Part shown: positions 3,063 through 57,883 of the stretch, in pieces | Position numbering within the stretch: position 1 is the stretch's first letter | How the letters are laid out: the number at the start of each line of letters is the position of its first letter | NCBI GenBank assembly: GCA_014193395.1 | Contig: BJHT01000001.1 | Location: 14,112-78,111 of the forward strand | DNA length: 64,000 nt | Direction of reading: 5' to 3' | Origin: Verrucomicrobiota bacterium | Lineage (GTDB): Bacteria; Verrucomicrobiota; Verrucomicrobiia; Limisphaerales; BJHT01 | Translations under genes and position numbers: made by a program | Notes under the pieces: model-generated | Database searches by the model: none | What the model was told of the DNA's origin: nothing | What the model saw: only the letters and a program-made list of their open reading frames with translations

Positions 3063-4061
3063 CTACTGCGCCTTCACCGGCGCGTTGGTCGCCGCGGGCG
3101 GATTGGTGGAAATTCCGGTCGCCTTCACCGGCCCGTGGTCATGCCCGTGGTGGTCGTGTTCGCTGTGCGGTTTGGGCGCGTGATCGTGGCCCGTGGTTTC
3201 AAATTCCCCGATCACCTTGGCCACGATCAGACCCGCGACCAACGCCGCCGAGAGCTTGCCCCGGTCGTGCGAATGAAACTGCAGTTCCGGCAGCAAATCG
3301 CTCGCGGCGATGCACAGGAACGTCCCCGCCGCGAACGCGAGCGCCGCGCCAAGGAAGCCGTGCATTTCCTCCGAATACTGGCTCGCGCCCAAATGAAACA
3401 GCACCACGCCCAGCGGAATCGCCACGGCGAACAGCGCATTGACGATGTGCCGTGACGCCTTGGACCAGCCGCCCTTCGTCATCAACGTCGCGATCGCCAG
3501 CGCATCGAAGGGCTTGTGCAGGATCACCACCAGGAACGTCCCGAAGCCCAGCAGCAGGCCCTCGTGCCCGGCGTGCGCCTCCACCTGCACGCTCGCCGCC
3601 AGCGCGATGCCGTCGATCAGCGTGTGCAGCGTCAGCCCGAACGCCACGCCGCCCCACGACAAATTCTTCGCCGACTGCGTGGCCAGCGAATGCTCGTCGC
3701 TGTGCGCGTGATCGTGGTCGTGCGAATGATCGTGCAGCGTGCAGGCCGCCGCCGCGGCCGAGGCGTCGGGGTCGCCCTCGGGCACATCGTGATGATGAAA
3801 ATGGAAGAACCGCTGGACGAAGAACATCAGCAGGAACCCGCCCAGCAGCCAGTTGACCGTGCGATCCATCGAGCGCAGTTCGCTGAACGCGTGCGGCAGC
3901 AGATGGAGCACGCCGACCCCGAGCATCAGCCCCGACACAAAGCTCGTCGCCACCTGCATCCGCGTGTGCGTCAGCCGCACCACCATCGGAATCCAGCCGC
4001 CCGACAACGAGGCGACGAGAATCAGGGCGCAATAAACGATGAGTGTGACGATGGGTGACAT
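3063..4061 (-). CDS. ZIP family divalent-metal (zinc/iron) transporter
   Basis: Multi-TM protein with a His-rich cytoplasmic loop (HDHSHDHDHAHSDEH). ZIP-type helix motifs LHTLIDGIALA and ILHKPFDALAIA are present. The C-terminal tail is His-rich (HSEHDHHGHDHG). Confidence 0.85.
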   Translation of the reverse strand: MSPIVTLIVYCALILVASLSGGWIPMVVRLTHTRMQVATSFVSGLMLGVGVLHLLPHAFSELRSMDRTVNWLLGGFLLMFFVQRFFHFHHHDVPEGDPDASAAAAACTLHDHSHDHDHAHSDEHSLATQSAKNLSWGGVAFGLTLHTLIDGIALAASVQVEAHAGHEGLLLGFGTFLVVILHKPFDALAIATLMTKGGWSKASRHIVNALFAVAIPLGVVLFHLGASQYSEEMHGFLGAALAFAAGTFLCIAASDLLPELQFHSHDRGKLSAALVAGLIVAKVIGEFETTGHDHAPKPHSEHDHHGHDHGPVKATGISTNPPAATNAPVKAQ

Positions 4062-4103
4062 TTCAACGGGCTTCTGGAACCGCGGGTGACTGTACGAGGC
4101 GGC

Positions 4104-4295
4104 GGGGAGGGGGGGAAGTAATTAGTAATTAGTGATTAGTAATTAGTGATTAGTCGGGGAAGTCGCGGCCAGGGCCGTGTGTGCGTTTCAGTCAACGAGG
4201 AGCCGTGCATCAATTGATTCCGCGCGAGTAAAACCCGCCGCGCCCTCCCCCCACTAATTACTAATCACTAATTACTAATTACTTTCCCCTCCCCG
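4104..4295. repeat. Large inverted repeat with AT-rich TAATTAG/TGATTAG heptamer arms (~45 bp arms, ~100 bp loop)
   Basis: The left arm is CGGGGAGGGGGGGAAGTAATTAGTAATTAGTGATTAGTAATTAGTGATTAGT. The right arm at 4252..4295 is its reverse complement. The element lies between the stop of 4299..7049 and the start of the ZIP gene. Confidence 0.9.
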
Positions 4296-7423: not shown

Positions 7424-7616
7424 TTTTGGAGTGCGGTGACTTGTCACCGCTTTTGCGCAGGCGACTTGTCGCCGTCGAACTTTCGTGTGGCACCGGTCAC
7501 GCGGGCGCGCCGGCGCTGGCGCGAGCCGTGAACGCCCCAACCAGTTTTCACGCGTCCCGCAATTCGACGGCGACAAGTCGCCTTGAAAAAGCGGTGACAA
7601 GTCCCCGCACTCCACA
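7424..7616. repeat. Full copy of the ~190-bp inverted-repeat (MITE-like) element family 'GGAGTGCGGTGACTTGTCACCGC'
   Basis: The terminal inverted repeats are TTTGGAGTGCGGTGACTTGTCACCGCTTTT and AAAAGCGGTGACAAGTCCCCGCACTCCA. The core aligns with the reverse complement of 44664..44858. Confidence 0.9.
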
Positions 7617-19966: not shown

Positions 19967-20170
19967 CAGTCCCGCAGGGACGACCGAAAATAGCCCAGCA
20001 CTTCAGTGCTGGGTTGGTGGCCGGAGAAGCGGAAAGTCCCGACAGGGACGAAAGAAATATCCGCACGCACGCCTCTGTCGTCCCTGCCGGGACTCGGTTC
20101 GCCATCGACGCGGACCCAGCACTGAAGTGCTGGGCTATTTTCTTTCGCCCGCTGGGCTGAGGTGGGGAAT
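19967..20170. repeat. ~200-bp MITE-like element (family 'AAAATAGCCCAGCACTTCAGTGCTGGG'), copy 1
   Basis: The terminal inverted repeats each form a hairpin. There is an internal inverted repeat GGAAAGTCCCGACAGGGACGA / TCGTCCCTGCCGGGACT. The element is roughly 85% identical, by eye, to 54971..55173 in the same orientation. Confidence 0.9.
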
Positions 20171-34314: not shown

Positions 34315-34612
34315 CGCCCGCAATACAAGCCATCGTCCGCCCGCGACGCGACAAGATTTTCCAAATCGAGGAATGAGTCCGGCGCAGCCGCGCATCGTCG
34401 CCCCCCGGAGCGCGAGCCGTCCCGGCTCGCAGCGGCTGCACCTGCACCGAGGTCGTGGCATTTCAAGCCCTTCCATCCCCGCGTCGCCGCTGCGGACGGG
34501 GACCGTCCGCGCGCCGAGGCAGTGACCGAACGCCCCCGGAAAAAAGTTGCACCACCCCGCGCGCTGGCTGACAAATTCGCCGCTCAATTCATCGTCTGCA
34601 CACCCACTCATC

Positions 34613-38379: not shown

Positions 38380-38400
38380 GGCAGCGTCCCGCGCGGACGG

Positions 38401-38644
38401 CCGCGGAGTGCGGCCGTCCCCGGCCGCAGCGACGTCCGCACGCACGGAGGTTTTGGAATTGGCCGGCACCTCACCGCGCTCCACCTCGCTGCGCCCGGGG
38501 ACGGGCGCACTCCGGCGTCGCGCGCCGCCGCCGCGGAGTGCGGCCGTCCCCGGCCGCAGCGACATCCGCACGCCCGAGGGTTTTGGAATTGGCCGGCACC
38601 TCACCGCGCGCCACCTCGCTGCGCCCGGGGACGGGCGCACTCCG
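38401..38644. repeat. Tandem duplication (2 x ~115 bp, period 129 bp) of a hairpin element CGGAGTGCGGCCGTCCCCGG...CCGGGGACGGGCGCACTCCG
   Basis: Unit 1 is 38401..38514 and unit 2 is 38530..38644, and they are near-identical. The repeat lies between convergent genes. Confidence 0.9.
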
Positions 38645-38656
38645 CAGGCCCGCCCG

Positions 38657-40093
38657 TCACGCGAAAATTTCCCTCACCGCCCGCGCCTCCTCAACGCCGG
38701 TGAGGCGCTGGTCGAGGCCTTGGAACGGAAAGATCAGCCGCTCGTGATCAAAGCCCAGCGCGTAAAGCAGCGTGGCGTGGAAATCATGCACGCTCACTTT
38801 ATCCACCGCGGCCTTGAAGCCGATGTCATCGGTCGCGCCGTAGTGAATGCCGCCTTTTACGCCGCCACCCGCCAGCCAGTACGTGAACGCGTGCGGGTTG
38901 TGATCGCGCCCGGGCTTGTTCGATTTCTGTGCGATCGGCAGGCGGCCGAACTCGCCGCCGCAGACGACGAGCGTGTCCTCCAGCAGCCCGCGCTGCGCGA
39001 GGTCGATGAGCAGTCCGGCGAAGGGCTGATCCGTCTCGCGCGCGAAGCCGCCGTGGTTGCCGACGATGTCGTTGTGCCCGTCCCACGAGAGCTGGTTGTC
39101 CATGCCGCCGCTGTAAATCTGAATGAACCGCGTGCCCCGCTCGATCAACCGCCGCGCCATCACGCATTGCGCCGCCATGTGCGCGCAATGCGGCTGATCG
39201 AGGCCGTAGAGCTTGCGGATGTGCTCCGGCTCGTGCGTGAGATCGAACGCCTCCGGCGCCGCGGTCTGCATCCGATACGCCAGCTCGAAGCTCTCGATGC
39301 GCGCGTTGAGTTCAGCTTCGGCGCCAGAGTTCCCGAGCTGCATCCGGTTCAAACGCGCGAGCAGATCAAGCTGCGCGCGCTGGCGGTCAGCGGTGAGATC
39401 GGCGGGGCGCGCGAGATTTTCCATCGGCGCGCCTTTGGGCTTGAGCCAGGTCCCTTGAAAAACGCCGGGCAGAAAACCCGCGGTCCAGTTGCTCGCGTGG
39501 CCCTTGGGCAGGCCGCGGTCCTTGGGATCGCTCATCACGATGAATGCCGGCAGATCGTCGCTCACCGAGCCGAGGCCGTAGGTCACCCACGAGCCGGCGC
39601 TCGGATGCCCCATGCGCGTGGTGCCGGTGTTCATCATGAACAGCGCGGGCGAATGGTTGTTCGACTCCGTGTGCAGCGAGTGGATGAACGCCATCCGGTC
39701 CACTTGCTGCGCGAGATTCGGGAACAGCGAGCTGACCCACGAGCCGCTCCGCCCGTGTTGCGCCCAGTCGAACGGCGACTTCATCAACGGCCCGACCGCG
39801 CCGGGAAAAAAGCCGGTCTTCGGGTCAAAGTCCGGCAGCGGCTGGCCGTCGCGCTTCTGCAATTCCGGTTTGTAATCCCACGTGTCCACCTGGCTCTGGC
39901 CGCCGTTCATGAACAGCCAGATCACGGCCTTGGCGCGCGGTGGCGCGTGCGGCGCCTTGCGTGCGAGCGGATTGCTCGCGGACGCCGCGAGGCCGCTGCG
40001 CGCGAGCAGACTCTGCAGCGCGACCACGCCGAAGCCCGCGCCCGCGCGCTGGAAAAAGTGACGACGATTGAGCGGGGTGGAGAAATTTTTCAT
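38657..40093 (-). CDS. DUF1501 domain protein (sulfatase-like), Tat signal
   Basis: MKNFSTPLNRRHFFQRAGAGFG.., WDGHND, GEFGRLP and GRDHNP. Confidence 0.9.
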   Translation of the reverse strand: MKNFSTPLNRRHFFQRAGAGFGVVALQSLLARSGLAASASNPLARKAPHAPPRAKAVIWLFMNGGQSQVDTWDYKPELQKRDGQPLPDFDPKTGFFPGAVGPLMKSPFDWAQHGRSGSWVSSLFPNLAQQVDRMAFIHSLHTESNNHSPALFMMNTGTTRMGHPSAGSWVTYGLGSVSDDLPAFIVMSDPKDRGLPKGHASNWTAGFLPGVFQGTWLKPKGAPMENLARPADLTADRQRAQLDLLARLNRMQLGNSGAEAELNARIESFELAYRMQTAAPEAFDLTHEPEHIRKLYGLDQPHCAHMAAQCVMARRLIERGTRFIQIYSGGMDNQLSWDGHNDIVGNHGGFARETDQPFAGLLIDLAQRGLLEDTLVVCGGEFGRLPIAQKSNKPGRDHNPHAFTYWLAGGGVKGGIHYGATDDIGFKAAVDKVSVHDFHATLLYALGFDHERLIFPFQGLDQRLTGVEEARAVREIFA

Positions 40094-40128: not shown

Positions 40129-40197
40129 GTAGCCGCCGACGTGAGGAGGCGGAGGGCTTGTCTGCGGTACGATCCGCCTCCTCACGGCGGCGGCTAC
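40129..40197. repeat. Palindromic element GTAGCCGCCGACGTGAGGAGGCGGA-loop-TCCGCCTCCTCACGGCGGCGGCTAC, copy A
   Basis: The arms are ~25 nt, near-perfect, with an ~20-nt variable loop. Other copies lie at 47374..47443 and 56512..56581. Confidence 0.95.
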
Positions 40198-40207
40198 GGG
40201 TGGCGGT

Positions 40208-43200
40208 TCAATTGACATAAACAAACTCATTCAACGCCAGCAGCGTCTGGCAAAAATCCGTCAGCGCCAGCGTGCGCGCCCCGGCTTTTCCCGACGGCCC
40301 GGCGGCCTCCAAACCGGCGGTGATGAACGCCGTGGTCGCCTGCAATTCGGCGAGCTGCGGCGGGCGGGCAAGGGCGAGCGTGTAGCCGTAAGTGATGAGC
40401 TTGGTGAGATCATCCGTTGCGGCCTCGGTTTCGACGCGGCGGGCGAAGGCGTTGGCCCATTGGCGCGCCTGCGGGCTGTTCATCAGCAGCAACGCCTGCG
40501 GTGCGACGATGGTCGTCGGGCGCAGGCCCTGGCTGGTCAGCGGCTCCGGCGCATCGAAGACGACCATCGAGTTCACGAGGCGGCTGCGTTTCACCGTGAA
40601 GTAAATGCTCCGGCGCGTGCTGGTTTCGTTGAGCGTGCCGGGTCCGAACATCGCGGGATCGAGCACGCCGCTCACCGCGAGAATGCTGTCGCGCACAGCC
40701 TCGCTCTCGAGACGTTGCGGGACGTGACGCAGGAAGAGCGCGTTGTCGGGATCGGCGGCGGCCTTGGCGGCATCGTGCGCGCTGCTCTGCTGATAGGCGG
40801 CGCTGGTGAGGACGAGGCGATGCAGGGTTTTCAGTTTCCAACCGCTGCGGATGAACTCACCCGCGAGCCAGTCGAGCAGCGCGGGATTCGAGGGCGCGAC
40901 GCCGGTCTTGCCGAAGTCGTTCGGCGTCGGCACGAGGCCGCGGCCGAAATGATGCTGCCACACGCGATTCACCGCCACGCGGGCCATCAATGCGCCCGCG
41001 CCGTGCTCGACATCGGTAAGCCAGTTCGCGAGCGAACGGCGGCGGCCGGAATATTTCGCGCCGGGTGGCGGCGACCATTGCCAGCGCGTTTCGTCCGCGT
41101 CGCGCATGAGCACCTGGAGGAAGCCCTGCGCCGCGAGGGCCTGCTTTTGATTCGTGTCGCCGCGCTTGAGAATGTGGGTTTCTTTGAGGAATGGGGGGCC
41201 TTGCGAGTGCATCACGATGGGCGTGTGACCCTCGGCGCAGATCATCGCTTGCGTCGCGTTGCGCGGCTCCTTGGCGGCGTGCTCGGCGACTTTCGCCTGC
41301 GCGGCGAGCCACGTCGGCTGCCGTTTTTTCCAGTGTTCGAACAGCGTCTTGGACTGCGCCTCGGTGGGCTTGCCGCCCGTGCGCAACACCTGCAGCGCGG
41401 CTGCGAGATCCGCGGCCACCGTGCCGCCGGGCAGCGCCGGCTCGGCCGCGTCGGTCACGGAGAAACGCGGCCGCCCGATGATGTGCTGCTTGTTGACGGT
41501 GAACTGCATTTCCAAAACGAGCTTCTCCTCGGCCGCGAGCGCGAGCGGTTGCGCGAGCACGAAAACGGCGGCGTGATCCTTGCCAATGCCGCCGAGGTCC
41601 ACGGCCCAGCCGGTGCTCGGGTTGTCATCGAGCGACGACGCGATGCTCAGCGAGTTTTTGTTCTGCTCGTAATCGGCGAACGCACGCGCGAGCGGAATGA
41701 CGCGCGCCGCGCCGTTCGCGGGCTGCACGCGCAGCACGAATTTGCCGAGGGCGAAATTGCCGTTGCCCGCGCGGCCCGGGCCGCCGCTCTTCATGCTCGG
41801 ATGCGCGAGCGTTTCCAGCCGCACCGCCGTGATGCGGCGCAGCGCCGCGGGTGCGGTGATCGTGTGGATGGCGTTCGCAGGCGCCGTGCCTTCGACGAGA
41901 TACGAGCCGTCGCCGAGCGGCTTGAAGGTCTCGGTCGTGTTGTTCGCCTTCAACGAATCGGGCACGAGCAGGGTCCACGCGTTCGTCTCCGGCTCGGCCT
42001 TGGCGCTGGCGAGCCACGTCGCGAAGGCGGGGCGCAGGGCGTCCTCGGTGGTTTGCAGCGCCGCCGTGAGTTCGGTGCGCTGGGTTTGCCACGCGGTTTT
42101 TTGCGCGCGGTTTTTTTCCTGATCCAAGTCCAGCTCGACGTTGCTGCGCACGGTCGTCGTGAAGGTCGTCAGCAGCCGGTAATAATCCTGCGTCGGGATG
42201 GGATCGAACTTGTGATCGTGACAGCGCGCGCAGCCGACGGTGAGGCCGAGGAAGGCGCTGGCCGTGGTCGAGAGCATGTCGTCCATCGCGTCGTAGCGCG
42301 TGCGCTCGACTTCGTTGGCGGTGATCTGCGTGGGGAAAACGCCCGCGCCGAGAAAACCCGTGGCCGTCATCGCGAACGCATCGCCGGGGGCAAACTCGTC
42401 ACCCGCGAGCTGCCAGCGCGCGAACTGATCGAAAGGCAGGTCGGCGTTCAGCGCCTTGATGACAAAGTCGCGGTAATGAAACGCGTGCGGCCGGTCGTAG
42501 TCGTGCTCGAAGCCGCTGCTCTCGGCGAAGCGCGCCACGTCCAGCCAGTGCCGCGCCCAGCGTTCGCCGTAGGCCGGCGAGTCGAGCAATTGGTCGATCA
42601 GCGCGGCGAAGGCTTTGGGCGATGGGATCGATGAACCGGACTGTTGCGCGACAAACGCCGCCACATCCTTCGGCGCCGGCGGCAGGCCGGTGAGGCCGAG
42701 AAACGCGCGTCGCAGCAGCGTGCGCGGATCGGCGGGGGGATTGAACGCGAGGCCCTTGGTCTTCGCTGCCGCGAGCAGGAACGCGTCCACCGGATGCGCC
42801 GCGCCCGCGGGCGGCGTCACCTTGGCGAGCGGCTGAAAGGCCCACCACTGACGGTCAGTGGCGCTCACGACCGAGCGGTCGCGCGCCGGAGTTTTGCCCG
42901 CGATGAGCGGCGCGTCGTAAGGCGCGCCGAGGTCGATCCACGCGGTGAGCTTCGCGATGGCGGCGGCGGGGAGTTGCGGTTGTTTCTCGGGCATTCCGGG
43001 TTTCAGCTCGTGACGGACGAGCTTGAGCAAACGGCTCGCGGACGCGTTGAACGGCGTGACGGCCGAACCCTCGGTGCCGCCGCGCAGGAGTCCCTCGCGC
43101 GTGGTGAGGTCGAAGTCATTGCGCGTCTTCTCGCCGCCGTGGCACTTCACGCAATGCTCGCGCAGGAGCGGCGCAATGTCGGTGCGGAACAGCTCGAGGC

Positions 43201-43324
43201 CGCGAGTCATCCGGGCAGCGTGGTCCGGGGGAAGCGCGGCGGGGGCGGCGGCTGGGGCGGCGAAGGAATGGCCGCAAAGAACGCCAAGAGACGCAAAGAG
43301 GAACAAGGCGTGGCGGAGCCGCAC
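40208..43324 (-). CDS. PSCyt1 / DUF1549 / DUF1553 protein
   Basis: CVKCHGG heme motif; DUF1549 (LLRRAFLGLTGLPPAP, ERWARHWLDVARFAES); CARCHDHKFDP; DUF1553 (NRVWQHHFGRGLV); C-terminus LNEFVYVN. The start is tentatively GTG at 43324 (VRLRHALFLFASLGVLCGHSFA signal peptide). The ORF is open up to the ATG at 43519. Confidence 0.85.
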   Translation of the reverse strand: MRLRHALFLFASLGVLCGHSFAAPAAAPAALPPDHAARMTRGLELFRTDIAPLLREHCVKCHGGEKTRNDFDLTTREGLLRGGTEGSAVTPFNASASRLLKLVRHELKPGMPEKQPQLPAAAIAKLTAWIDLGAPYDAPLIAGKTPARDRSVVSATDRQWWAFQPLAKVTPPAGAAHPVDAFLLAAAKTKGLAFNPPADPRTLLRRAFLGLTGLPPAPKDVAAFVAQQSGSSIPSPKAFAALIDQLLDSPAYGERWARHWLDVARFAESSGFEHDYDRPHAFHYRDFVIKALNADLPFDQFARWQLAGDEFAPGDAFAMTATGFLGAGVFPTQITANEVERTRYDAMDDMLSTTASAFLGLTVGCARCHDHKFDPIPTQDYYRLLTTFTTTVRSNVELDLDQEKNRAQKTAWQTQRTELTAALQTTEDALRPAFATWLASAKAEPETNAWTLLVPDSLKANNTTETFKPLGDGSYLVEGTAPANAIHTITAPAALRRITAVRLETLAHPSMKSGGPGRAGNGNFALGKFVLRVQPANGAARVIPLARAFADYEQNKNSLSIASSLDDNPSTGWAVDLGGIGKDHAAVFVLAQPLALAAEEKLVLEMQFTVNKQHIIGRPRFSVTDAAEPALPGGTVAADLAAALQVLRTGGKPTEAQSKTLFEHWKKRQPTWLAAQAKVAEHAAKEPRNATQAMICAEGHTPIVMHSQGPPFLKETHILKRGDTNQKQALAAQGFLQVLMRDADETRWQWSPPPGAKYSGRRRSLANWLTDVEHGAGALMARVAVNRVWQHHFGRGLVPTPNDFGKTGVAPSNPALLDWLAGEFIRSGWKLKTLHRLVLTSAAYQQSSAHDAAKAAADPDNALFLRHVPQRLESEAVRDSILAVSGVLDPAMFGPGTLNETSTRRSIYFTVKRSRLVNSMVVFDAPEPLTSQGLRPTTIVAPQALLLMNSPQARQWANAFARRVETEAATDDLTKLITYGYTLALARPPQLAELQATTAFITAGLEAAGPSGKAGARTLALTDFCQTLLALNEFVYVN

Positions 43325-43359
43325 CGCGACTGGAGCGCGACCGGTCCCCGGTCGCAGCG
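43265..43359. repeat. Copy of the 'GGAATGGCCGC-(ACGCAAAGA)n ... GCGACCGGTCCCCGGTCGCAGCG' composite repeat
   Basis: It aligns with 7152..7190 and 7318..7377. It overlaps the 5' end of the PSCyt gene. Confidence 0.8.
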
Positions 43360-43515
43360 CGTGATCCGCGAGGGGTGCGTTGGAGAGCGCGGCACCGGTT
43401 CGCCATGCGGAGCCGCTGCGGGCGGGGACCGCCCGCGCGCCGAACGCGTCGCTGCCCGCGACCGTTCCGAAAGCTGGCAGCGCAAAAGACACAGCGAGAT
43501 TGGGAGAGTTCAGCT

Positions 43516-44529
43516 TCATAATTTGCGCGGGGCTTTGAGTTTCGCGATGAGGAAGTCATCGATCTTCGGATGCTTCACGTCGGGCGCGCCGGGATAGACG
43601 AACTCGCATTCGACACCGGCGGCTTTGCATTTTTCCTGAAACTTCACGCCGTAGTTCGAGGTGTGCGTCGGGTCTTTCTGTTCCTGCCCCATCGCGGGCG
43701 GCGCGGAGTAGAGCAGGTAGAGCGGCGGATCGCCGGCGGAGACGTGTTCCATTGGCGAGTATTCCTTGATCCACGGCAGCACGGATTCGCGCGCGGCGAG
43801 GAAGGCGGCGAACTGCGTGTCGCGCGTTTTGTTGTCCTTCGGGTCGGGCATGAAGCCGAACGCGTGGCCGCCGTAACGGCTGTTCGGCGTCCACTCCTTG
43901 AGCTGCTGCGGGTCGAGCGAGGTCTGCGCGCCGTTCACGGCGGCGCACCAGAGGCGCGTGGATTCGCGCGCGACGGGGTCGGCGCTTTTCGGATCGGCGA
44001 GGTCGTCGTGCAGCGCGAGCCACAGGCTCGAGCACGCGCCCGCGGAGCCGCCGGTCGCGCCGATGCGCTGCTTGTCGAGGTTCCACGCGGCGGCCTGGCT
44101 GCGGACGAACTGGAGGGCGCGCGCGGCGTCGTGGAGCGGCCAGGAGACGGGCGGCTTCACGCCCGCGAGCTGCGCCTGCGTGGTGTAGCGGTAATTGATC
44201 GAGACGACCGAGATGCCCGCCGCGAGATACTTGTCGAGGCTCCCGACGCCTTTCTTGTCGCCCGCGACCCAGCCGCCGCCGTGGATGTGGAAAACGACGG
44301 GCGTGGGCGTGTCGGACTTGGCCTGATAGAAATCGAGCACCTGCCGCTCGTGCGTGCCGTACGGGACATCGGCGTGCGTGGGCGCGACTTGCGGCGCAGA
44401 GGGTTTCGCGGCGCGCGTGGGCGCAGGCGTGGGCGTAGGCTTGGCCGCGGGCTTTGCGGGCGCGTCCGCGGCGAAGGCGGGCGTGTTAAAGGCGCAAAGT
44501 GTGGCGAGGAGCAGGCCGATTTTTTTCAT
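43516..44529 (-). CDS. Secreted alpha/beta hydrolase (esterase/lipase, HGGG type)
   Basis: A signal peptide is present. The oxyanion motif is HIHGGGWVAGDK and the nucleophile elbow is GGSAGA. Confidence 0.85.
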   Translation of the reverse strand: MKKIGLLLATLCAFNTPAFAADAPAKPAAKPTPTPAPTRAAKPSAPQVAPTHADVPYGTHERQVLDFYQAKSDTPTPVVFHIHGGGWVAGDKKGVGSLDKYLAAGISVVSINYRYTTQAQLAGVKPPVSWPLHDAARALQFVRSQAAAWNLDKQRIGATGGSAGACSSLWLALHDDLADPKSADPVARESTRLWCAAVNGAQTSLDPQQLKEWTPNSRYGGHAFGFMPDPKDNKTRDTQFAAFLAARESVLPWIKEYSPMEHVSAGDPPLYLLYSAPPAMGQEQKDPTHTSNYGVKFQEKCKAAGVECEFVYPGAPDVKHPKIDDFLIAKLKAPRKL

Positions 44530-44663: not shown

Positions 44664-44858
44664 CTTTGGAGTGCGGTGATTTGTCACCGCTTTCTCAAGG
44701 CGACTTGTCGCCGTCGAACTGTAAGTGGCGTGAAGATGAAATGGGGCATTCACGGCTCGCGCCAGCGCCGACGTGCCCGCGTGACCGGAGCCGCACGGAG
44801 GCTCGACGGCGACGAGTCGCCTGCGCAAAAGCGGTGACAAGTCACCGCACTCCAAAGG
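44664..44858. repeat. Full copy (inverted orientation) of the ~190-bp 'GGAGTGCGGTGAC..GTCACCGC' element family
   Basis: Its reverse complement aligns along its whole length with 7424..7616. Confidence 0.9.
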
Positions 44859-45974: not shown

Positions 45975-48900
45975 TCAATTGTTACGCAGGGCATCCAACA
46001 GGTTGCCGCGCAATGCCAGCGCGGTGGCGGCGAGGGTCCAGAGCGCGCCGTTTAAAAGCACGCCGCCGAGGGTCAGGCTCAGGGTCGCGATCGGGAGCGG
46101 CGTGTTCGGGGTCATGAGCGCGGGCAGGACGGCGACGACCGCCGCGGCCACGCCGCCGCCGAGGCCGATGAGCAGCAGCGCGCCGTGTTCGCTGACGAGC
46201 AGCCACTTGAGCGAGCGCGGGCGGAAGCCGACGGCGAGCAGCAGCGCCAGTTCGCCGCGGCGCTCGAGAACGTTGCGCAACACGACCACGCCGAGGCCGA
46301 CGCTGCCGAGCAGCAGACCGAGGCCGCCGAGGACTTGGAAGGTGCCGAGGTAGGTGTTTTGCACGGCGTTGAATTGCGCGAGACGACGCGTGGCGGGCGT
46401 GAGCTCGAGGCCGCTGTCGCGCAGGGCGCGCGTGAGCTGTGCACCTGCGTCGGATGCGCGCTCGGGCGGGGAATCCACGAGGAAGAAACGGTAGCCGCTC
46501 TCGCCGGGGAAACGCGCGGTGAACGCTTCTTCGGCGATGATGATGTTGCCTTGGAGAACCGAGTTCGCGAGCGCGGCAACGAGGCGGACGCGGAAGGTCT
46601 GGCCGCGCTCGTCGGTGAAATCGAGCGTGTCGCCGAGCTTTTTTCCCAGCGCCCACAGGATCGAGGCTTCGTCGGCGATGCCGGGGATTTCGTTGCTCGC
46701 GTCCCCAGTGCCCGCGTTGGAACCGGTTGCAGGCGACAACAGCAGCCACGGATTTTCTTTCGACAATCCCTTGGCGACGCTGGCGAAACTGAACGCGCCA
46801 CGCCCGGCGAGCAGCTCGGGTTTCACGCCGAGCAGACGGGGCTTTTGCGCGCGGTTGAGATTCAGGCAGCTCGCGTCATCGCCGTCGCGGACGCGGAAGG
46901 GAACGACGCTGACGTTGGTGAGCGCGGTGGCGGGGAGGCCGAGGGATTCGCGGCCGCGCGCGGTGTTGAGATCGGCGGTGACGGGCAACGTGCTCTCGCC
47001 GAGGAACGCGAAGCCGCCGGTGCCGGAGGAGCGCTTCGTCGAGTTCACGTTTTCATCGAGGCGGAACGCGCCGATGCTCACGATCAAAAAGCTCCCGCAC
47101 GCGAGCATCGCGACCGTGGCGAGACTGCGGCGACGCCTACGCGTGGCGCTGCGCAGGCCCATGCCCGCGAGCGTGAGGCGGGCGGCGGTCGCCGAGGATT
47201 CGAGACGCGAAAGCAGCACCGAGGTGAATGCGAGCGCGGCGATCAACAGCAGCGCGCCCGCACCGAAGAAGAGGCCGGCGGCGGAAGTTTGCGCCGTGGC
47301 GAGCGCGTAGCCGACGAGGCCGAGGCCGCTGAGGAGGCTGGCGAGACCGACGAGCGCGGCGCGCGTGCCGCTTGTAGCCGCCGACGTGAGGAGGCGGACG
47401 GCCCCGGACGTTCCACGATCCGCCTCCTCACGTCGGCGGCTACCGTCAGACTCTTCGCTGCCGCCGGCGAGGAGTTCGCGGGCGGGGCGCTGGACTTGTT
47501 TGCGCAGCGCGAGCCAAAGCGTGAAGACCGCGACGAGCACGCTGCCGATGATGCCGCCGAAGAGCGTCGCCGGCTCGGCGTGGAAGTGCAGGTCGCTCGT
47601 GCCCACGGCGTCGCGCCACACGGTCGAGAGCGCGTGCAGCATGGCGCGCGCATACCAGACCGCGCCCGCCGCACCAAGCAGCGCGCCGAGCAGCGCCAGC
47701 CCCGCGCCTTCGCCGAGCAGGAGGCGTCGCACCTGTGGCGGCGTGAAGCCAAGCGCGAGCAGCGTGCCGATTTCCTGCGCGCGTTGTTCGATGCCGAACT
47801 GGAACAGCAGCGCCACCAGCACGCACGCCGCGATGATCAGGAAAAAGCTGAACCCGATGAACAGCCCGCCGAAGTCCTGTCCCTGCGAACTCGCTGCGAG
47901 CGCCTGCGCCCGCACGGGCTGGAACGTCAGGCCGAAGTCCGCGGGCTTGAGCTGCGCGAGCAGAGCGGCCTCCAATTTGAGATTTGAAATTTCAGATTTC
48001 AGATTCCGGTCCCCGCCGCCTGACGGCTGGCTCCCGGCTCCTGCCTCCTGACTCCTGTCCCCTGTCCCCTGCGCGAACCGCACCGCCGTCGTGTCGCCGA
48101 ACCGATTTGCCCACATTTTCCGCCCCGCGTTCAGCGTCACGAAGGCCTTCGGGGTGCCGCGCCATTTGGCCCAGTAATCGTCGTCCTCCTTGCGAATCTT
48201 GTGCGCAAGCGGGAAGCCGGCGTCCCAGTCGCCCGCGCGCTCGGCCTGGGCGATGCCGGGGAAGTCGGGCATGAGCGTGCGGTCGGCCCACGGCAGTTCC
48301 AGCGGGACGACGGAGCGGACGCGGAAACGGTTGGTCGCCTCGAGCAATCGCGCGCCGGAATCGGGGAGGAAATAGGTGAGCGCCACCTCCGCGCCGGGGC
48401 CGATCTTCAGGTCGTCCGCGAGCCATTGGCTGATAACGATTTCGTCGTCGCGCAAATCGGCGGGCACGAGCGGCGCGGTGGCGGCGGTGACCATCGAGTA
48501 GGGCGTGGTGCGTTCGCCGGCGCGCAGGAGATTGACGAGGAACGTGAGCACAGGCCGGGCGTTGGTGTCCACTGCGAGCGCGGCGCGGACGGCGGGCGGA
48601 TCGAGGAAGATGCGCGGGGTGCGGAGTTCGATCGCGGCGGTGTTGGTGAGCGGGCGGAGTTCGAGCTGGGTGTCGGCGAGCTTCCAGATTTGCGGCAATG
48701 CGTAATTGGAATCTTCGGAGGTCTTTGGAGCGGATGAAGATTCTCCGCGTAGCATCAGGTTTGCGCGGCCCGTGGCACCGACGCGTTCCTGAAGCAAAGC
48801 GAAATTCACGAAGGCGTTGAACGGCGCAATCTGATTGGCTTGGAGGCTGAAGTTGCCGAGAAACCGGGCGGGCTGAATCGCCGTGACGCGGAGGCGCAGG

Positions 48901-49505
48901 GCGACGGTCTGCCCGTCGCGCGGCGTGAGGGAAACTTCCTGCGAGAGCGCGGAGGTTTTGGTAACGCGGAGCAGGACTTCATCGCCGACTTTGGTGGCAA
49001 GCTGGTCGGCGAGGGCTTGGTTGAGAACGACGCCGTTGGTCGGGACGGCTGCGGTGGCTGTGGTTGATTGTGCCAGTTTCCAGAAGTGTTCCTCGACGCC
49101 GTAAACATGGACGCGATTGGCGCGGTGCGTGCCGTCGGCCGAGTTCGCGGTGCCGGGCAGCGCGAGGACGGGCGCGGTCGCAAGGCGCAGATCAGAGGCA
49201 AGTTCGGAGCGGACGAGGCGGTCGCCGCCGGGTTGAGGCGACAAGCTGTCGCCTCCCCTGGAAAGATCAGTGGCGAGTTCGGCGCGGAAGAGGCGGTCGC
49301 CAGAGGTGAGCGCTGTGTTGATGGGGCCGAGGCGTTTGAGCGCCATGGCGCGCAGGCTGCCACGGACGGAATCGCCGACGAGCAGCGCACCAATGAGCAC
49401 GGCGCTGCCAACGGTCGCACCGAGCAGCACGCCGAAATGCGCCCGCGCGTGGTGGCGGAGGCTGCGGAGGATGAGGGTCCAAAGCGACATGGGGGAAAAG
49501 CTCAA
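45975..49505 (-). CDS. ABC transporter permease, double FtsX/MacB-type (YbbP-like), expanded by repeat insertions
   Basis: 1176-aa uninterrupted ORF. The N-terminus LILRSLRHHARAHFGVLLGATVGSAVLIGALLVGDS is typical of FtsX-family permeases. There are two 4-TM FtsX blocks with large extracytoplasmic domains. Confidence 0.85.
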   Translation of the reverse strand: MSFSPMSLWTLILRSLRHHARAHFGVLLGATVGSAVLIGALLVGDSVRGSLRAMALKRLGPINTALTSGDRLFRAELATDLSRGGDSLSPQPGGDRLVRSELASDLRLATAPVLALPGTANSADGTHRANRVHVYGVEEHFWKLAQSTTATAAVPTNGVVLNQALADQLATKVGDEVLLRVTKTSALSQEVSLTPRDGQTVALRLRVTAIQPARFLGNFSLQANQIAPFNAFVNFALLQERVGATGRANLMLRGESSSAPKTSEDSNYALPQIWKLADTQLELRPLTNTAAIELRTPRIFLDPPAVRAALAVDTNARPVLTFLVNLLRAGERTTPYSMVTAATAPLVPADLRDDEIVISQWLADDLKIGPGAEVALTYFLPDSGARLLEATNRFRVRSVVPLELPWADRTLMPDFPGIAQAERAGDWDAGFPLAHKIRKEDDDYWAKWRGTPKAFVTLNAGRKMWANRFGDTTAVRFAQGTGDRSQEAGAGSQPSGGGDRNLKSEISNLKLEAALLAQLKPADFGLTFQPVRAQALAASSQGQDFGGLFIGFSFFLIIAACVLVALLFQFGIEQRAQEIGTLLALGFTPPQVRRLLLGEGAGLALLGALLGAAGAVWYARAMLHALSTVWRDAVGTSDLHFHAEPATLFGGIIGSVLVAVFTLWLALRKQVQRPARELLAGGSEESDGSRRREEADRGTSGAVRLLTSAATSGTRAALVGLASLLSGLGLVGYALATAQTSAAGLFFGAGALLLIAALAFTSVLLSRLESSATAARLTLAGMGLRSATRRRRRSLATVAMLACGSFLIVSIGAFRLDENVNSTKRSSGTGGFAFLGESTLPVTADLNTARGRESLGLPATALTNVSVVPFRVRDGDDASCLNLNRAQKPRLLGVKPELLAGRGAFSFASVAKGLSKENPWLLLSPATGSNAGTGDASNEIPGIADEASILWALGKKLGDTLDFTDERGQTFRVRLVAALANSVLQGNIIIAEEAFTARFPGESGYRFFLVDSPPERASDAGAQLTRALRDSGLELTPATRRLAQFNAVQNTYLGTFQVLGGLGLLLGSVGLGVVVLRNVLERRGELALLLAVGFRPRSLKWLLVSEHGALLLIGLGGGVAAAVVAVLPALMTPNTPLPIATLSLTLGGVLLNGALWTLAATALALRGNLLDALRNN
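47374..47443. repeat. Palindromic element GTAGCCGCCGACGTGAGGAGGCGGA...TCCGCCTCCTCACGTCGGCGGCTAC, copy B, inside the permease CDS
   Basis: It is translated in frame as ..SRRREEADRGTSGAVRLLTSAATSG.. within the inter-domain linker. Confidence 0.95.
47971..48072. repeat. Microsatellite-like module (GATTTGAAATTTCAGATTTCAGATT + CCTGACTCCTGTCCCCTGTCCCC) inside the permease CDS
   Basis: It is translated as GTGDRSQEAGAGSQPSGGGDRNLKSEISNLKLE. The unit types are shared with the intergenic block at 10971..11075. Confidence 0.75.
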
Positions 49506-54970: not shown

Positions 54971-55173
54971 GCAGTCCGGCAGGACGACCGAAAATAGCCC
55001 AGCACTTGAGTGCTGGGTTGGTGGCGGGGAAGCGGAAAGTCCCGGCAGGGACGAAAGAGGCCGGACGACGCGCGTTTTCTGTCGTCCCTGACGGGACTTG
55101 GTTCGCTACCGCCGCAGACCCAGCACTGAAGTGCTGGGCTATTGTCTTTCGCCCGCTGGGCTGGGGATGGGAA
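54971..55173. repeat. ~200-bp MITE-like element (family 'AAAATAGCCCAGCACTTGAGTGCTGGG'), copy 2
   Basis: It aligns end to end with 19967..20170. Confidence 0.9.
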
Positions 55174-55254: not shown

Positions 55255-56448
55255 TCAGGCCGGAATCTCGAACAGATACACCGGCGACGTGTTGCCCGGA
55301 TAGGAGCCGTCGGCGGTTTTCGGACGACCGTTGCCGGCGCTGGCCTTGTTCATCGAGACGACGGCAAAGCGTTTGGCGTCGGGGTGTAGGGTGACGGAGT
55401 GGCAGTTGGCCAGCGCCGTGTGGGTGAAGAACGGCTCCTTCTCGCCGAGGCGCAGGAACATGACCTTGCCGTTGCCGGGCTGGCCGCTGGTGACGAGGAT
55501 CAGGTAGCCGCCGGGATGCGCGGCGACATCGAGGACGAAGCCGTCTTTGGCCGCGCCGAAACGCCAGTCGGACTGCGGTTTGCCGGTCGCGACGTCGAAG
55601 CGCAGGAGCGCGGGCGCGCCTTCGAGGAAGCCGCCGCCCGCGGGTTCACAGCCGCCGACGAGCAGGGATTTGCCACCGTCAATGAACGCGAGCATTCGCA
55701 GTCCGGCCACGTCCTGCAGGCGCGAGAGTTTGTGAAAAACGGAGGCATCGAATTCGCGCACGGGTTTTTGCGTGGCGAAATCCCAGAGCGTGACGCGGCC
55801 TTTCAAGTCGGCGAATGCAACGAGCTTGCCCTCGGGCGCAAAGGTCACGGCGAAGACGTCCTCGGGCGCGCGGTGCTCGGTGACGAGTTTGCCGGCGGTG
55901 GTCCAGATGCGGACGAACTGGTCGCGGCCGCAGGTCGCGAGGTGCTGGCCGTCGGGGGAGACGGCGAGGCGGCGAATCCAGCCGTCGTGCGCGGCGGCGT
56001 TTTCCCACAGGGGCTTGGGCGCGTCGCCTTCGTAGGGGGTGGCGAGGAGCCTGCCCCAGGTGTCGGCGACGTAGAGGACTTTTTCCTTGGGATGGAACGC
56101 GAGGTTTTGCACCCAGCCGTTGCAGCCGGTGAGATGCGGCAGGGGCACGAGTTCGACGGGGGAGTCTTCGGCGGGCGGCTTCGCGGCTTTGGCGGGCTTG
56201 GTGTTTTTGGGCGCGGCTTTTTTCGGGGCGTCGTCGAGGAGGTCGATGTCCGCTGCGGCTGCGGCGGCGGGCGCGGGCGGGGCCTTCTTTTTCTCGACGA
56301 CGCTCCAGCGGCGCACGGTGCCCTCGAACGCGCCGGCGGCGAGGAAATTGCCGCACGGGCTGAAGCGCGCGATGGCGAGCTGGCGGTCGCAGGGGAACAT
56401 CTTGAGTTCCTTGGGCGGGACAAAACTGGCGGCGGGTTGGTCGGGCAT
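55255..56448 (-). CDS. WD40/beta-propeller repeat protein
   Basis: WD-like strand endings are present (VRRWS, VRIWT, VTLWD). A Lys/Ala/Pro-rich insert lies after the first blade. The gene follows a DUF1501 gene. Confidence 0.75.
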   Translation of the reverse strand: MPDQPAASFVPPKELKMFPCDRQLAIARFSPCGNFLAAGAFEGTVRRWSVVEKKKAPPAPAAAAAADIDLLDDAPKKAAPKNTKPAKAAKPPAEDSPVELVPLPHLTGCNGWVQNLAFHPKEKVLYVADTWGRLLATPYEGDAPKPLWENAAAHDGWIRRLAVSPDGQHLATCGRDQFVRIWTTAGKLVTEHRAPEDVFAVTFAPEGKLVAFADLKGRVTLWDFATQKPVREFDASVFHKLSRLQDVAGLRMLAFIDGGKSLLVGGCEPAGGGFLEGAPALLRFDVATGKPQSDWRFGAAKDGFVLDVAAHPGGYLILVTSGQPGNGKVMFLRLGEKEPFFTHTALANCHSVTLHPDAKRFAVVSMNKASAGNGRPKTADGSYPGNTSPVYLFEIPA

Positions 56449-56511: not shown

Positions 56512-56581
56512 GTAGCCGCCGACGTGAGGAGGCGGATCGGGCGCTGGGCGGGGGACTCCGCCTCCTCACGTCGGCGGCTAC
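56512..56581. repeat. Palindromic element GTAGCCGCCGACGTGAGGAGGCGGA...TCCGCCTCCTCACGTCGGCGGCTAC, copy C
   Basis: The arms are a perfect 25 nt. It lies in the intergenic gap between the DUF1501 stop and the WD40 start. Confidence 0.95.
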
Positions 56582-56602: not shown

Positions 56603-57883
56603 TCACGCGAGCGCCTCCTTGATCGGGGCCATCTCGTCGTGGGCGAGCGGCAGGGGCTGGCTGTTGTTGTTGTATTCCACTTTTTTGGAGTCGATGCCGA
56701 GGGCGTTGAACCAGGTGTGGAAGACCGCGCCGATGTCGTGGCCCGCGTCCTTCACGTCGGTGCCCTGGTCGTTCGTCGCACCAACGACCGCGCCGGCTTT
56801 CAGGCCGCAGCCGGCCATCGCGATGCTCCACGCCTCGGGCCAGTGGTCGCGGCCGACGTGGCCGTTGATGCGCGGGGTACGGCCAAACTCGCTCATCGCA
56901 ATGACGAGCGTCTGCTCAAGCAGGCCGGTCGCGGCGAGGTCCTCGACGATGGCGGCGAAGGCGCGGTCGAACTTTGGCACGAGCGAGGCGTGGGCGTTGA
57001 AATTATCGCCGTGGGTGTCCCAGCCGTAGCTGTTGACCTTCACGAAGCGCACGCCGGCCTCGATCATGTTGCGCGCGATGAGCATGTGCTGGCCGATCTC
57101 GGTGCGGCCGTAGCGGTCGAGTTCCTTCGCAGCCATTTTGCTCGTGTCGAAAATCTCGGCGCGTTTCATCAGCTCGCGCGCGGTGTCGAAGACGTAGCTG
57201 CTGGCTTCGGTGAACGCGGGGCGGCGTTGCGCGGCGTAGCGTTTGTTCAGCAGTTCCCGCAGCTCGTTGCGCTCGTCGTCCTCGTCGGCGGTGAGCGCGG
57301 CGGGGCGGAGTAAATCCTCGGGCGGCTTGCCGTCACCGAACGCGAGCGAGCCGTATTTCGGCCCGAGAAAACCGGCGTCCTCGGTCTTGAATCCGCCGCT
57401 GCCGGGCTTCACCCAGACGTAGGGCGGAAGCTTCGAGGCGGTCGGTCCCATGAGCTTGGCGATGGCGGAGCCGAAGTAGGGATAGGCGACGCCGCGGTTC
57501 TTCGGATCACCGCGCTGGATGCGGGCGACGCCGGACGAGTGGGCGTTGTCCTTGGTGCAGAGATTGCGAACGATGCAGAGGCGATGGGCCTGCTTGGCGG
57601 ACTGCGGCATGAGTTCGGAAAAGTGCGTGCCGGGCACGCTGGTCTTGATGGTGCGGAACGGCCCGCCGAACTCGGTGTTCGGCTTCGGATCCCAGCTCTC
57701 CAACTGGCTGATGCCACCATCAAGCCAGACGAAGAGGACCTGCTTCTCCTTTTTGCGCAGGGCCTCGGCGGCTTGGGGTGAGACGAGTCCGCCGAGCGCG
57801 CCGAGCGCGAGCGCGCCGGCGGACGCGCCGAGGAACTGGCGGCGCGAGGTGGTGTGTTCCCAGGGTTTGCAAAGGGGGTTCAT
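56603..57883 (-). CDS. DUF1501 domain protein, Tat signal
   Basis: TSRRQFLGASAGALALGA, WDTHGDN, SEFGRTP and GRDHWP. Confidence 0.9.
   Translation of the reverse strand: MNPLCKPWEHTTSRRQFLGASAGALALGALGGLVSPQAAEALRKKEKQVLFVWLDGGISQLESWDPKPNTEFGGPFRTIKTSVPGTHFSELMPQSAKQAHRLCIVRNLCTKDNAHSSGVARIQRGDPKNRGVAYPYFGSAIAKLMGPTASKLPPYVWVKPGSGGFKTEDAGFLGPKYGSLAFGDGKPPEDLLRPAALTADEDDERNELRELLNKRYAAQRRPAFTEASSYVFDTARELMKRAEIFDTSKMAAKELDRYGRTEIGQHMLIARNMIEAGVRFVKVNSYGWDTHGDNFNAHASLVPKFDRAFAAIVEDLAATGLLEQTLVIAMSEFGRTPRINGHVGRDHWPEAWSIAMAGCGLKAGAVVGATNDQGTDVKDAGHDIGAVFHTWFNALGIDSKKVEYNNNSQPLPLAHDEMAPIKEALA

Follow-up and report, generated by a model that had tools for sequence, protein, structure and literature searches.

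A probable GTAG-headed REP dimer lying in frame in a double-FtsX permease gene of freshwater Verrucomicrobiota

How can a palindrome of 70 bp with perfect arms lie in the middle of a gene without closing its reading frame, and what kind of element is it? The question is raised by a stretch of 64,000 nucleotides from a Verrucomicrobiota bacterium of the Limisphaerales (assembly GCA_014193395.1, contig BJHT01000001.1, positions 14,112 to 78,111; the whole stretch is called the window below), in which such a palindrome interrupts a gene for a fused double-FtsX permease of MacB-like ATP-binding cassette (ABC) type. The original prediction, made from this DNA alone, had placed the palindrome three times in the window: twice between genes, each time adjoining a DUF1501 gene, and once in frame within a single intact permease gene, where it falls in the linker that joins the two FtsX halves. 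All three copies were found at these places, both DUF1501 neighbors were confirmed, and the third site is borne out by the open reading frame (ORF) and by the Pfam domains on its two sides; a lone arm elsewhere in the window had gone unlisted. The 70-bp element is very probably a tail-to-tail dimer, like a REPIN or a bacterial interspersed mosaic element (BIME), of a 25-nt repetitive extragenic palindromic (REP) sequence that has a GTAG head and a cognate REP-associated tyrosine transposase (RAYT). The repeats form a new GTAG REP family, with a behavior already documented for such repeats. The features on which the argument turns are the following:

45975-49505, minus strand: host gene, a fused double-FtsX (MacB-like) ABC permease; ORF of 1176 codons from a TTG
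47374-47398, plus strand: REP unit 1 (arm 1), 25 nt, GTAGCCGCCGACGTGAGGAGGCGGA; GTAG head, CCGCC, 10-nt loop GACGTGAGGA, GGCGG, final A
47399-47418, no strand assigned: variable spacer of 20 nt joining the tails of both REP units; its minus strand encodes roughly ..DRGTSGAV..
47419-47443, minus strand: REP unit 2 (arm 2), TCCGCCTCCTCACGTCGGCGGCTAC, the exact reverse complement of unit 1, with its GTAG head outward
40129-40197, no strand assigned: second REP dimer, intergenic, between a PSD1/PSCyt gene (40208-43519, minus strand) and a DUF1501 gene (38657-40093, minus strand); one mismatch, in the second arm, and a 19-nt spacer
56512-56581, no strand assigned: third REP dimer, intergenic, between a DUF1501 gene (56603-57883, minus strand) and a WD40 gene (55255-56448, minus strand); perfect arms and a 20-nt spacer
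2189-2213, minus strand: single REP unit, B-type variant GTAGCCGGCGAGGTGACGAGGCGGA, degenerate, with three mismatches to the main arm and no recognisable partner

The outward position of the second GTAG head makes the pair at 47374-47443 a tail-to-tail dimer, with both 25-nt arms perfect around the spacer. Seven arms with at most three mismatches are present in the window, against an expectation of 0.00 from 100 dinucleotide shuffles; all begin with GTAG, and six of them make up the three inverted pairs, whose spacers are unrelated in sequence. No Rfam family reached its gathering score over the 70-bp element, the matches being sub-threshold generic hairpin matches to miRNA models. The genes on either side of both intergenic copies are transcribed in the same direction; the adjacency to DUF1501 genes is probably incidental, and placement between unidirectional genes is typical of REPs. 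Assembled contigs from four independent lake and river metagenomes cover both flanks of the in-frame copy, and in two of the four a 68-nt contig bridges the spacer with zero differences, so that the element is not an assembly artefact. Contigs of the arm itself run at 50-100 times the depth of the flanks in these metagenomes, to which other species may contribute. No joints of empty-site or flipped-spacer variants were found in the four metagenomes, whose short-k contigs break at the repeated arms.

A scan for the arm through one genome per bacterial species found at least 110 loci carrying it, most of them in records labelled Verrucomicrobiota (Pedosphaera, Limisphaerales, Verrucomicrobiia); when the window was compared by blastn with all fetched loci, none proved to come from its own genome. 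These listed loci and the window together hold 94 inverted pairs, with spacers of 7-47 nt that are almost all different, and 48 unpaired arms. Of 236 arms about 98% retain the GTAG head (G1 in 232, T2 in 230, A3 in 232 and G4 in 235), the CCGCC and GGCGG blocks are near-invariant, and variation is concentrated at loop positions 12, 15 and 17. Within one element the arms often differ in loop variant (GACGTGAGGA with GAGGTAACGA or GAGGTGACGA), and pairing of arm with arm is therefore not what is conserved. Each arm is, to judge from its letters, a predicted mini-hairpin of its own, CCGCC-N10-GGCGG following the GTAG head. The pairing within the arm was surveyed by collecting every GT[AG]G-N5-loop-N6 string from all loci, with N5 unconstrained and the loop motif as the sole anchor. 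The stems recovered were CCGCC/GGCGG, GAGAC/GTCTC, GAGCC/GGCTC, GAGTC/GACTC, CCACC/GGTGG, CCCCC/GGGGG and GAAAC/GTTTC. Paired cells made up 88.5% of the total, against 66% in shuffles and 38-56% in controls with slid partners; double-sided changes occur at all five stem pairs, and none of 500 shuffles reached the observed covariation score.

About a dozen of the arm-bearing records are labelled Bifidobacterium, Klebsiella, Akkermansia or Kapaibacterium, and these bins were taken as mislabelled. Among them L111, titled “Akkermansia muciniphila,” is about 88% identical in nucleotides to the window across the permease region, and its label looks wrong. In two further loci (L017:1599-1903 and L073:6711-6985) dimers of the family are repeated head to tail in tandem, with a period of about 82-101 nt and with spacers that hardly differ, from which it follows that dimer and spacer can amplify locally as one unit. 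These direct arrays gave the idea of CRISPR-like arrays, which was rejected, the units there being inverted dimers in tandem. Integron attC sites were rejected as well: the GTTRRRY core is missing, and the match between the arms is exact instead of imperfect.

Is there a transposase that belongs to these repeats? Clustering of the ORFs of at least 90 aa in 110 listed arm-bearing loci gave no small transposase cluster as a recurrent neighbor. A phmmer search with the E. coli RayT protein matched one ORF, in L038 (E = 2e-10). This ORF of 189 aa (L038:3255-3821) has a match to NCBIfam NF047646, “REP-associated tyrosine transposase,” that spans positions 3-145 of 146 (E = 1.3e-17). It keeps the HxH and Y..NP motifs, and H59, H61, Y115, N119 and P120 (E. 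coli RayT numbering) do not vary among eight aligned sequences. It is bracketed by dimers of the family at 3094-3184 and 4027-4123, 70 bp upstream and 200 bp downstream. A metagenome scan with the L038 protein returned 80 loci. Family arms (at most three mismatches) lie within about 250 bp of 32 of the 34 closest homologues (59-81% identity, all but one at least 64%), and, in every locus that has both flanks, on both sides of the gene; some loci duplicate one another, which leaves nearer 25 independent cases. No family arms were found near any of the remaining 45 homologues, all at 55-62% identity. These more distant RAYTs (L153-L198) are flanked by other GTAG REPs, GTAGGAGACGACGTGAGGAGTC in 12 loci and GTAGCGGCGTCTCGGCAGAGCG in 16, the former having the same loop with a swapped compensatory stem. 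RAYT clade and REP stem thus co-vary, which is what a cognate pair predicts. Two RAYT genes (L141:2501-3133 and L142:169-801) themselves contain an in-frame dimer of their own family (..VAAEVTRRTGETPEDSASSRRRL..), located after the catalytic-tyrosine motif.

The in-frame copy adds about 24 residues, GSRRREEADRGTSGAVRLLTSAAT, to the permease. The ORF is open across the element, with no stop, and reads ...ELLAGGSEESDGSRRREEADRGTSGAVRLLTSAATSGTRAAL... and ..GGSEESDGSRRREEADRGTSGAVRLLTSAATSGT... Its Pfam matches are MacB_PCD and two FtsX stretches; the insert follows closely on the first of these two, whose last residue is 671. Since the product catalogued as P0001 has 1171 aa, translation probably starts at the ATG at 49490. 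Stops (the TAG of the head, plus a TGA) occur in a single one of a REP unit's three frames, so that two thirds of the frames are readable. An AlphaFold2 model of the permease is of low confidence (mean predicted local distance difference test score, pLDDT, 59; predicted template modelling score, pTM, 0.40); it puts the insert between two long helices, in a coil whose pLDDT is below 50. From MacB topology the linker loop with the insert is presumably cytoplasmic, a location that would suit its RRR-rich peptide.

Was the segment gained, and when? The original prediction had proposed an alignment with orthologues that lack the insert, and such orthologues exist: among 30 aligned protein sequences, a linker of about 12 residues, without insert, separates ..PARELLAGG.. 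from the next helix in those at 54-68% identity (P0009, P0011, P0014, P0041 to P0115). A REP-derived segment stands at the same place in P0002 to P0008, at 83-90% identity, and in other lineages the place is taken by repeat-derived peptides of quite another kind (SNQFSVISGQ.., ..GDKSPHSKG). The insert-free state is therefore ancestral, and repeats have repeatedly landed, or been retained, in this linker. Orthologous DNA was compared with the window in four loci. L111 has the same element and spacer, sharing 18 of 20 spacer positions and differing at 1 of 50 arm positions; L113 (4994-5063) differs at 2 of 50. The L113 spacer is identical to that of the window at 13 of 20 positions when inverted and at 4 of 20 when read directly, a result equalled by 430 of 100,000 shuffles; the flip recodes about seven residues, from RGTSGAV to GPDHAGN, and was seen as a between-species difference only. 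The copy in L114 is decayed, with 11 of 50 arm positions changed. The inserts of L111, L113 and L114 clearly go back to the same event as the window copy. L116 has, in the same linker, a unit of the GAGCC sub-family that is displaced by 6 nt.

Identity to the window at four-fold degenerate sites in these genomes is 0.76-0.81. An insert common to genomes about 0.79 identical at such sites is old, predating several species-level splits. The suggestion that it was “recent or selectively maintained” consequently fails in its first half, and the second holds for some lineages only: the arms are kept in some and decayed in others. Neutral change would produce about 10 arm differences in 50, against which the binomial probability is 1e-4 for the single difference of L111, 2e-3 for the two of L113 and 0.46 for the 11 of L114. 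On both sides of the insert the permease is 0.88-0.95 identical in amino acids and 0.73-0.82 at four-fold sites, a contrast that places both halves under purifying selection.

The functional unit would be the single arm, with its GTAG head, 5-bp stem and 10-nt loop; by analogy with characterised RAYTs, the RAYT would recognise the hairpin of this arm in single-stranded DNA. Two inverted units could in addition form a long hairpin, leaving the spacer free to vary. Most likely the REP dimer spread by a RAYT-dependent single-strand process, and one dimer would have reached fixation in the ancestor of a small freshwater clade of Verrucomicrobiota, having landed in, or survived only in, a permissive and poorly conserved linker after the first FtsX domain. 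There it would be read through in a stop-free frame as the extra residues of a protein that stays under purifying selection; the linker is a permissive site, at which different lineages have collected different repeat families. The sequences themselves show membership of the family, covariation in the hairpin, linkage to RAYTs in related genomes, the polarity and the age of the insertion, and the open frame; we infer here a RAYT as the mobilising agent, actual translation of the insert, and a transporter that has retained its function.

One other way to account for inverted termini that match over all 25 bp, a length near 70 bp and numerous dispersed copies is a miniature inverted-repeat transposable element (MITE), whose terminal inverted repeats of 25 bp would be mobilised by a DDE transposase unrelated to RAYTs. 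Such an element should have left target-site duplications, and there are none: identical flanks of 2, 3, 4 and 5 nt occur in 6, 1, 0 and 0 of 92 copies, where 5.8, 1.4, 0.4 and 0.09 are expected by chance. This absence is as expected of HUH/Y1 elements. Each supposed terminal repeat is moreover itself a covarying hairpin with a GTAG head, the arms of one element are often different loop variants, single arms and head-to-tail arrays occur, and the genes that the arms flank are RAYTs, not DDE transposases; a MITE origin is accordingly very improbable. Still harder to credit is that nothing was inserted at all, the palindrome being an ancestral linker that became palindromic by chance, or the spacer between two genes taken for one. 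The greatly varying length of the linker among orthologues might be cited for this, but identical 25-nt arms stand in more than 100 unrelated loci and the orthologues at 54-68% identity do without the segment. Nor does a division into two genes agree with the absence of a stop codon, with the coding pattern of G+C at third codon positions (GC3), which continues on both sides of the element, or with the best 120 permease homologues, all of which are single proteins of 1041-1340 aa.

A different possibility is that the element, whatever its origin, has been domesticated: kept as a stable hairpin in mRNA or single-stranded DNA (for pausing between the permease halves, or for transcript stabilisation), or for its charged peptide. 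The arms of L111 and L113 have changed far less than the roughly 20% seen at four-fold sites, the predicted RNA hairpin of the window dimer is very stable (-67.8 kcal/mol, z = -8.2), and even the decayed L114 copy keeps pairing on the sense strand at 6 of its 8 altered pairs, by G.U wobble or compensatory change. However, in the lineage of L114, P0005, P0007 and P0008 the arms decay at the neutral rate and the protein is conserved, distant orthologues work without any insert, unrelated repeats occupy the same spot in other lineages, and the presence of the same repeat in many unrelated proteins is contrary to a gene-specific role. The conservation of the arms could equally come from gene conversion or from RAYT-linked maintenance, and a domesticated role seems unlikely.

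Gene conversion from other copies, RAYT-linked maintenance and selection on the hairpin are all possible causes of arm maintenance, and a hint, from a handful of loci, is that maintenance tracks the resident REP-RAYT specificity. In L114 an intact GAGCC-type unit stands just upstream of the permease gene (2858-2882), and the unit at the permease site of L116 (3387-3411) is likewise of GAGCC type, which suggests turnover of REP sub-families between close relatives. A tentative and rather doubtful extension would be that arms are actively kept identical to the current “master” REP for as long as a RAYT of matching specificity is there, and that a shift in this specificity leads to their decay or replacement. 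The pattern at the permease site is consistent with this: the CCGCC arms of the window, L111 and L113 are near-perfect, those of L114 are decayed, and L116 has the other type. If it is true, the site is a natural orthologous record of REP-RAYT co-evolution, an in situ homogenising activity (gene conversion or RAYT-dependent) acts even within coding sequence, and spacer flips occasionally recode the inserted peptide.

Several results weigh against a RAYT-borne REP dimer. The 64-kb window contains no RAYT gene by phmmer search with E. coli RayT, and nothing with at least 80% nucleotide likeness to the L038 gene was found in the Logan contigs of the four metagenomes, so that the window organism's own RAYT was not recovered; divergence is probably the reason that a search by nucleotide likeness failed. 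The L038 protein itself scores 64 bits against NF047646, below the equivalog cut-off of 80 bits, and has no Pfam match at E <= 0.01. The element is 70 bp long, which is not a multiple of three. Either the ends of the palindrome are not the exact limits of the insert, or small compensating indels restored the frame, and the variability of the linker hides the difference; among intragenic copies elsewhere, lengths of all three residue classes are represented. Passive hitch-hiking alone does not account for arms that are still nearly perfect after about 20% neutral divergence. Finally, to our knowledge, RAYT-mediated transposition of REPs has never been directly demonstrated in any organism.

How common are in-frame copies? 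A search with the arm and a tally of coding against intergenic copies had been suggested for the window's own genome; it was carried out in related genomes, on the listed loci of other Verrucomicrobiota. By a strict count 19 of 94 copies, and by a relaxed one about 27 (about 20-29%), lie in long ORFs with coding-type GC3, leaving about 70-80% outside long coding ORFs. Ten intragenic copies were checked for Pfam domains, with the following result:

Domains flanking or spanning the insert (8 proteins): valyl-tRNA synthetase (ValRS), NuoF-like protein, molybdopterin oxidoreductase, GH38 mannosidase, short-chain dehydrogenase (SDR), double ABC ATPase, DUF7133/GSDH/HEAT protein, NB-ARC/TPR protein
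Domain downstream of the insert only (2 proteins): PSD1 protein, GDE_N protein

How much of this is familiar from other repeats? With the GTAG REPs and RAYTs of other bacteria (E. coli REP/BIME, Pseudomonas REPINs) the family shares the GTAG head, the short stem-loop, a probably high copy number, the pairing of inverted units into a larger hairpin, a position that seems mostly to be between genes (unidirectional or convergent), the lack of target duplication, and a repeat-flanked HUH/Y1 gene (“REPtron”). Variable spacers in tail-to-tail dimers are a further shared trait (PMC3733652; PMC3116915, PMC3337134), and the latter two also describe long vertical persistence of REPIN-RAYT populations. 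It differs from the E. coli and Pseudomonas REPs in sequence and in its hosts, Verrucomicrobiota of Pedosphaera/Limisphaerales type. Further differences are the sharing of one 25-mer by more than 100 species-level genomes, with RAYTs as far apart as about 64% identity, and the large intragenic fraction, roughly a quarter of all copies; the stem, of only 5 bp, is at the short end of the reported range.

The closest precedent comes from the same phylum. Di Nocera, De Gregorio and Rocco (BMC Genomics 2013; PMC3733652) distinguished GTAG-tagged and CGTC-tagged REP super-families, linked the GTAG REPs to RAYTs, and catalogued intragenic GTAG REP dimers, most abundant in the verrucomicrobium Opitutus terrae. 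The O. terrae families GTAG-17 to GTAG-20 share with the present one the phylum Verrucomicrobia, the GTAG REP class and in-frame dimers encoding 20-30 residues of proteins that are otherwise normal, sometimes two in one protein; the host order and the repeat sequences differ, and the peptides there are of the type VGPALAAG..., compared with SRRREEA...RLLTSAAT here (PMC3733652). Neither SRRREEA nor GTAGCCGCC occurs in the supplementary tables of that paper (PMC3733652), which, unlike the present comparison, did not follow one insertion across orthologues.

The Rickettsia palindromic elements (RPEs), to which the original prediction had likened the permease insert, are likewise palindromic repeats found in frame in genes that stay functional, adding a peptide at permissive sites. 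The likeness stands as one of behavior and not as one of membership, the element being, as argued above, a probable GTAG REP dimer with a RAYT: by analogy it may be said to work like an RPE in its in-frame colonisation of genes, the host phylum is another one, and its GTAG head contrasts with the tag of the short R. conorii repeats. Elements of RPE-1 type are longer, about 100-150 bp, and we know of no sequence relationship with RPEs and of no RAYT linkage for them. The short intragenic repeats RPE-4 and RPE-6 of R. conorii are of CGTC type, not GTAG type (PMC3733652).

MITEs such as Correia/NEMIS, RUP, ERIC and Nezha are also small, non-coding and present in many copies, have inverted termini, are often co-transcribed and are sometimes intragenic; they differ in their origin from DDE-type insertion sequences and in their target duplications, whereas here such duplications are absent and the termini are REPs that each fold on themselves and are tied to a Y1 transposase. 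With intragenic invertons (10.1101/2023.03.11.532203) the permease insert has in common a short coding segment between inverted repeats that is found in both orientations. Unlike them, its flip is a fixed species difference, with no within-population joints and no invertase implicated.

These results do not overturn current understanding. They bring into the REP/RAYT system a large group of freshwater and soil Verrucomicrobiota, most of it uncultured, pair a defined 25-nt REP with its RAYT clade, and place housekeeping enzymes among the proteins with in-frame copies. The permease linker is a small natural experiment on sites that tolerate insertions of about 25 residues, and kept and decayed arms at one orthologous site offer a handle on how REP populations are maintained. 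There is also a practical point for annotation: repeat-derived peptides (SRRREEA.., ..PPPHVGGY, ..RLLTSAAT, VAADVRRR..) will seed spurious similarity between unrelated proteins and inflate protein lengths.

Upstream of the permease, in the same gene string, lies its likely partner, and the arrangement is the same in L113:

51017-51724, minus strand: ABC ATPase gene (ABC_tran)

Within the permease ORF there is a second site of interest. At window positions 47974-48005 an AT-rich palindrome, AATTTGAGATTTGAAATTTCAGATTTCAGATT, stands in the GC-rich gene and encodes NLKSEISNLKLE; distant orthologues are without it, and nucleotide alignments to all relatives break at 47963-48076. In other lineages the same site holds repeat-derived peptides, NSQFAIRNSQ and ADVRRLTS...TPHVVSYK, the latter resembling a GTAG-REP sub-family, and the permease thus has two separate repeat-collecting loops. 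Both insert sites are in coil with pLDDT below 50 in the low-confidence AlphaFold2 model.

The window contains other repeats besides. Rfam Acido-Lenti-1 (RF01687) has four matches, at 44-60 bits against a gathering score of 37, located at 19968-20158 and 54973-55162. They form two inverted pairs about 100 nt apart and coincide with inverted repeats of the window, an arrangement that looks like another dispersed palindromic element and not a stand-alone small RNA gene. Further palindromic or tandem repeat families lie at 7459-7583, 44698-44822, 38393-38645, 43318-43455, 34403-34519 and 4106-4294, among them AGGCGACTTGTCGCCGTCGAA pairs, GCGGAGTGCGGCCGTCCCCGGCCGCAGCGA-type pairs and GTAATTAGT-type repeats. 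The reverse strand of AGGCGACTTGTCGCCGTCGAA would code for GDKSP, the peptide seen in other permease orthologues.

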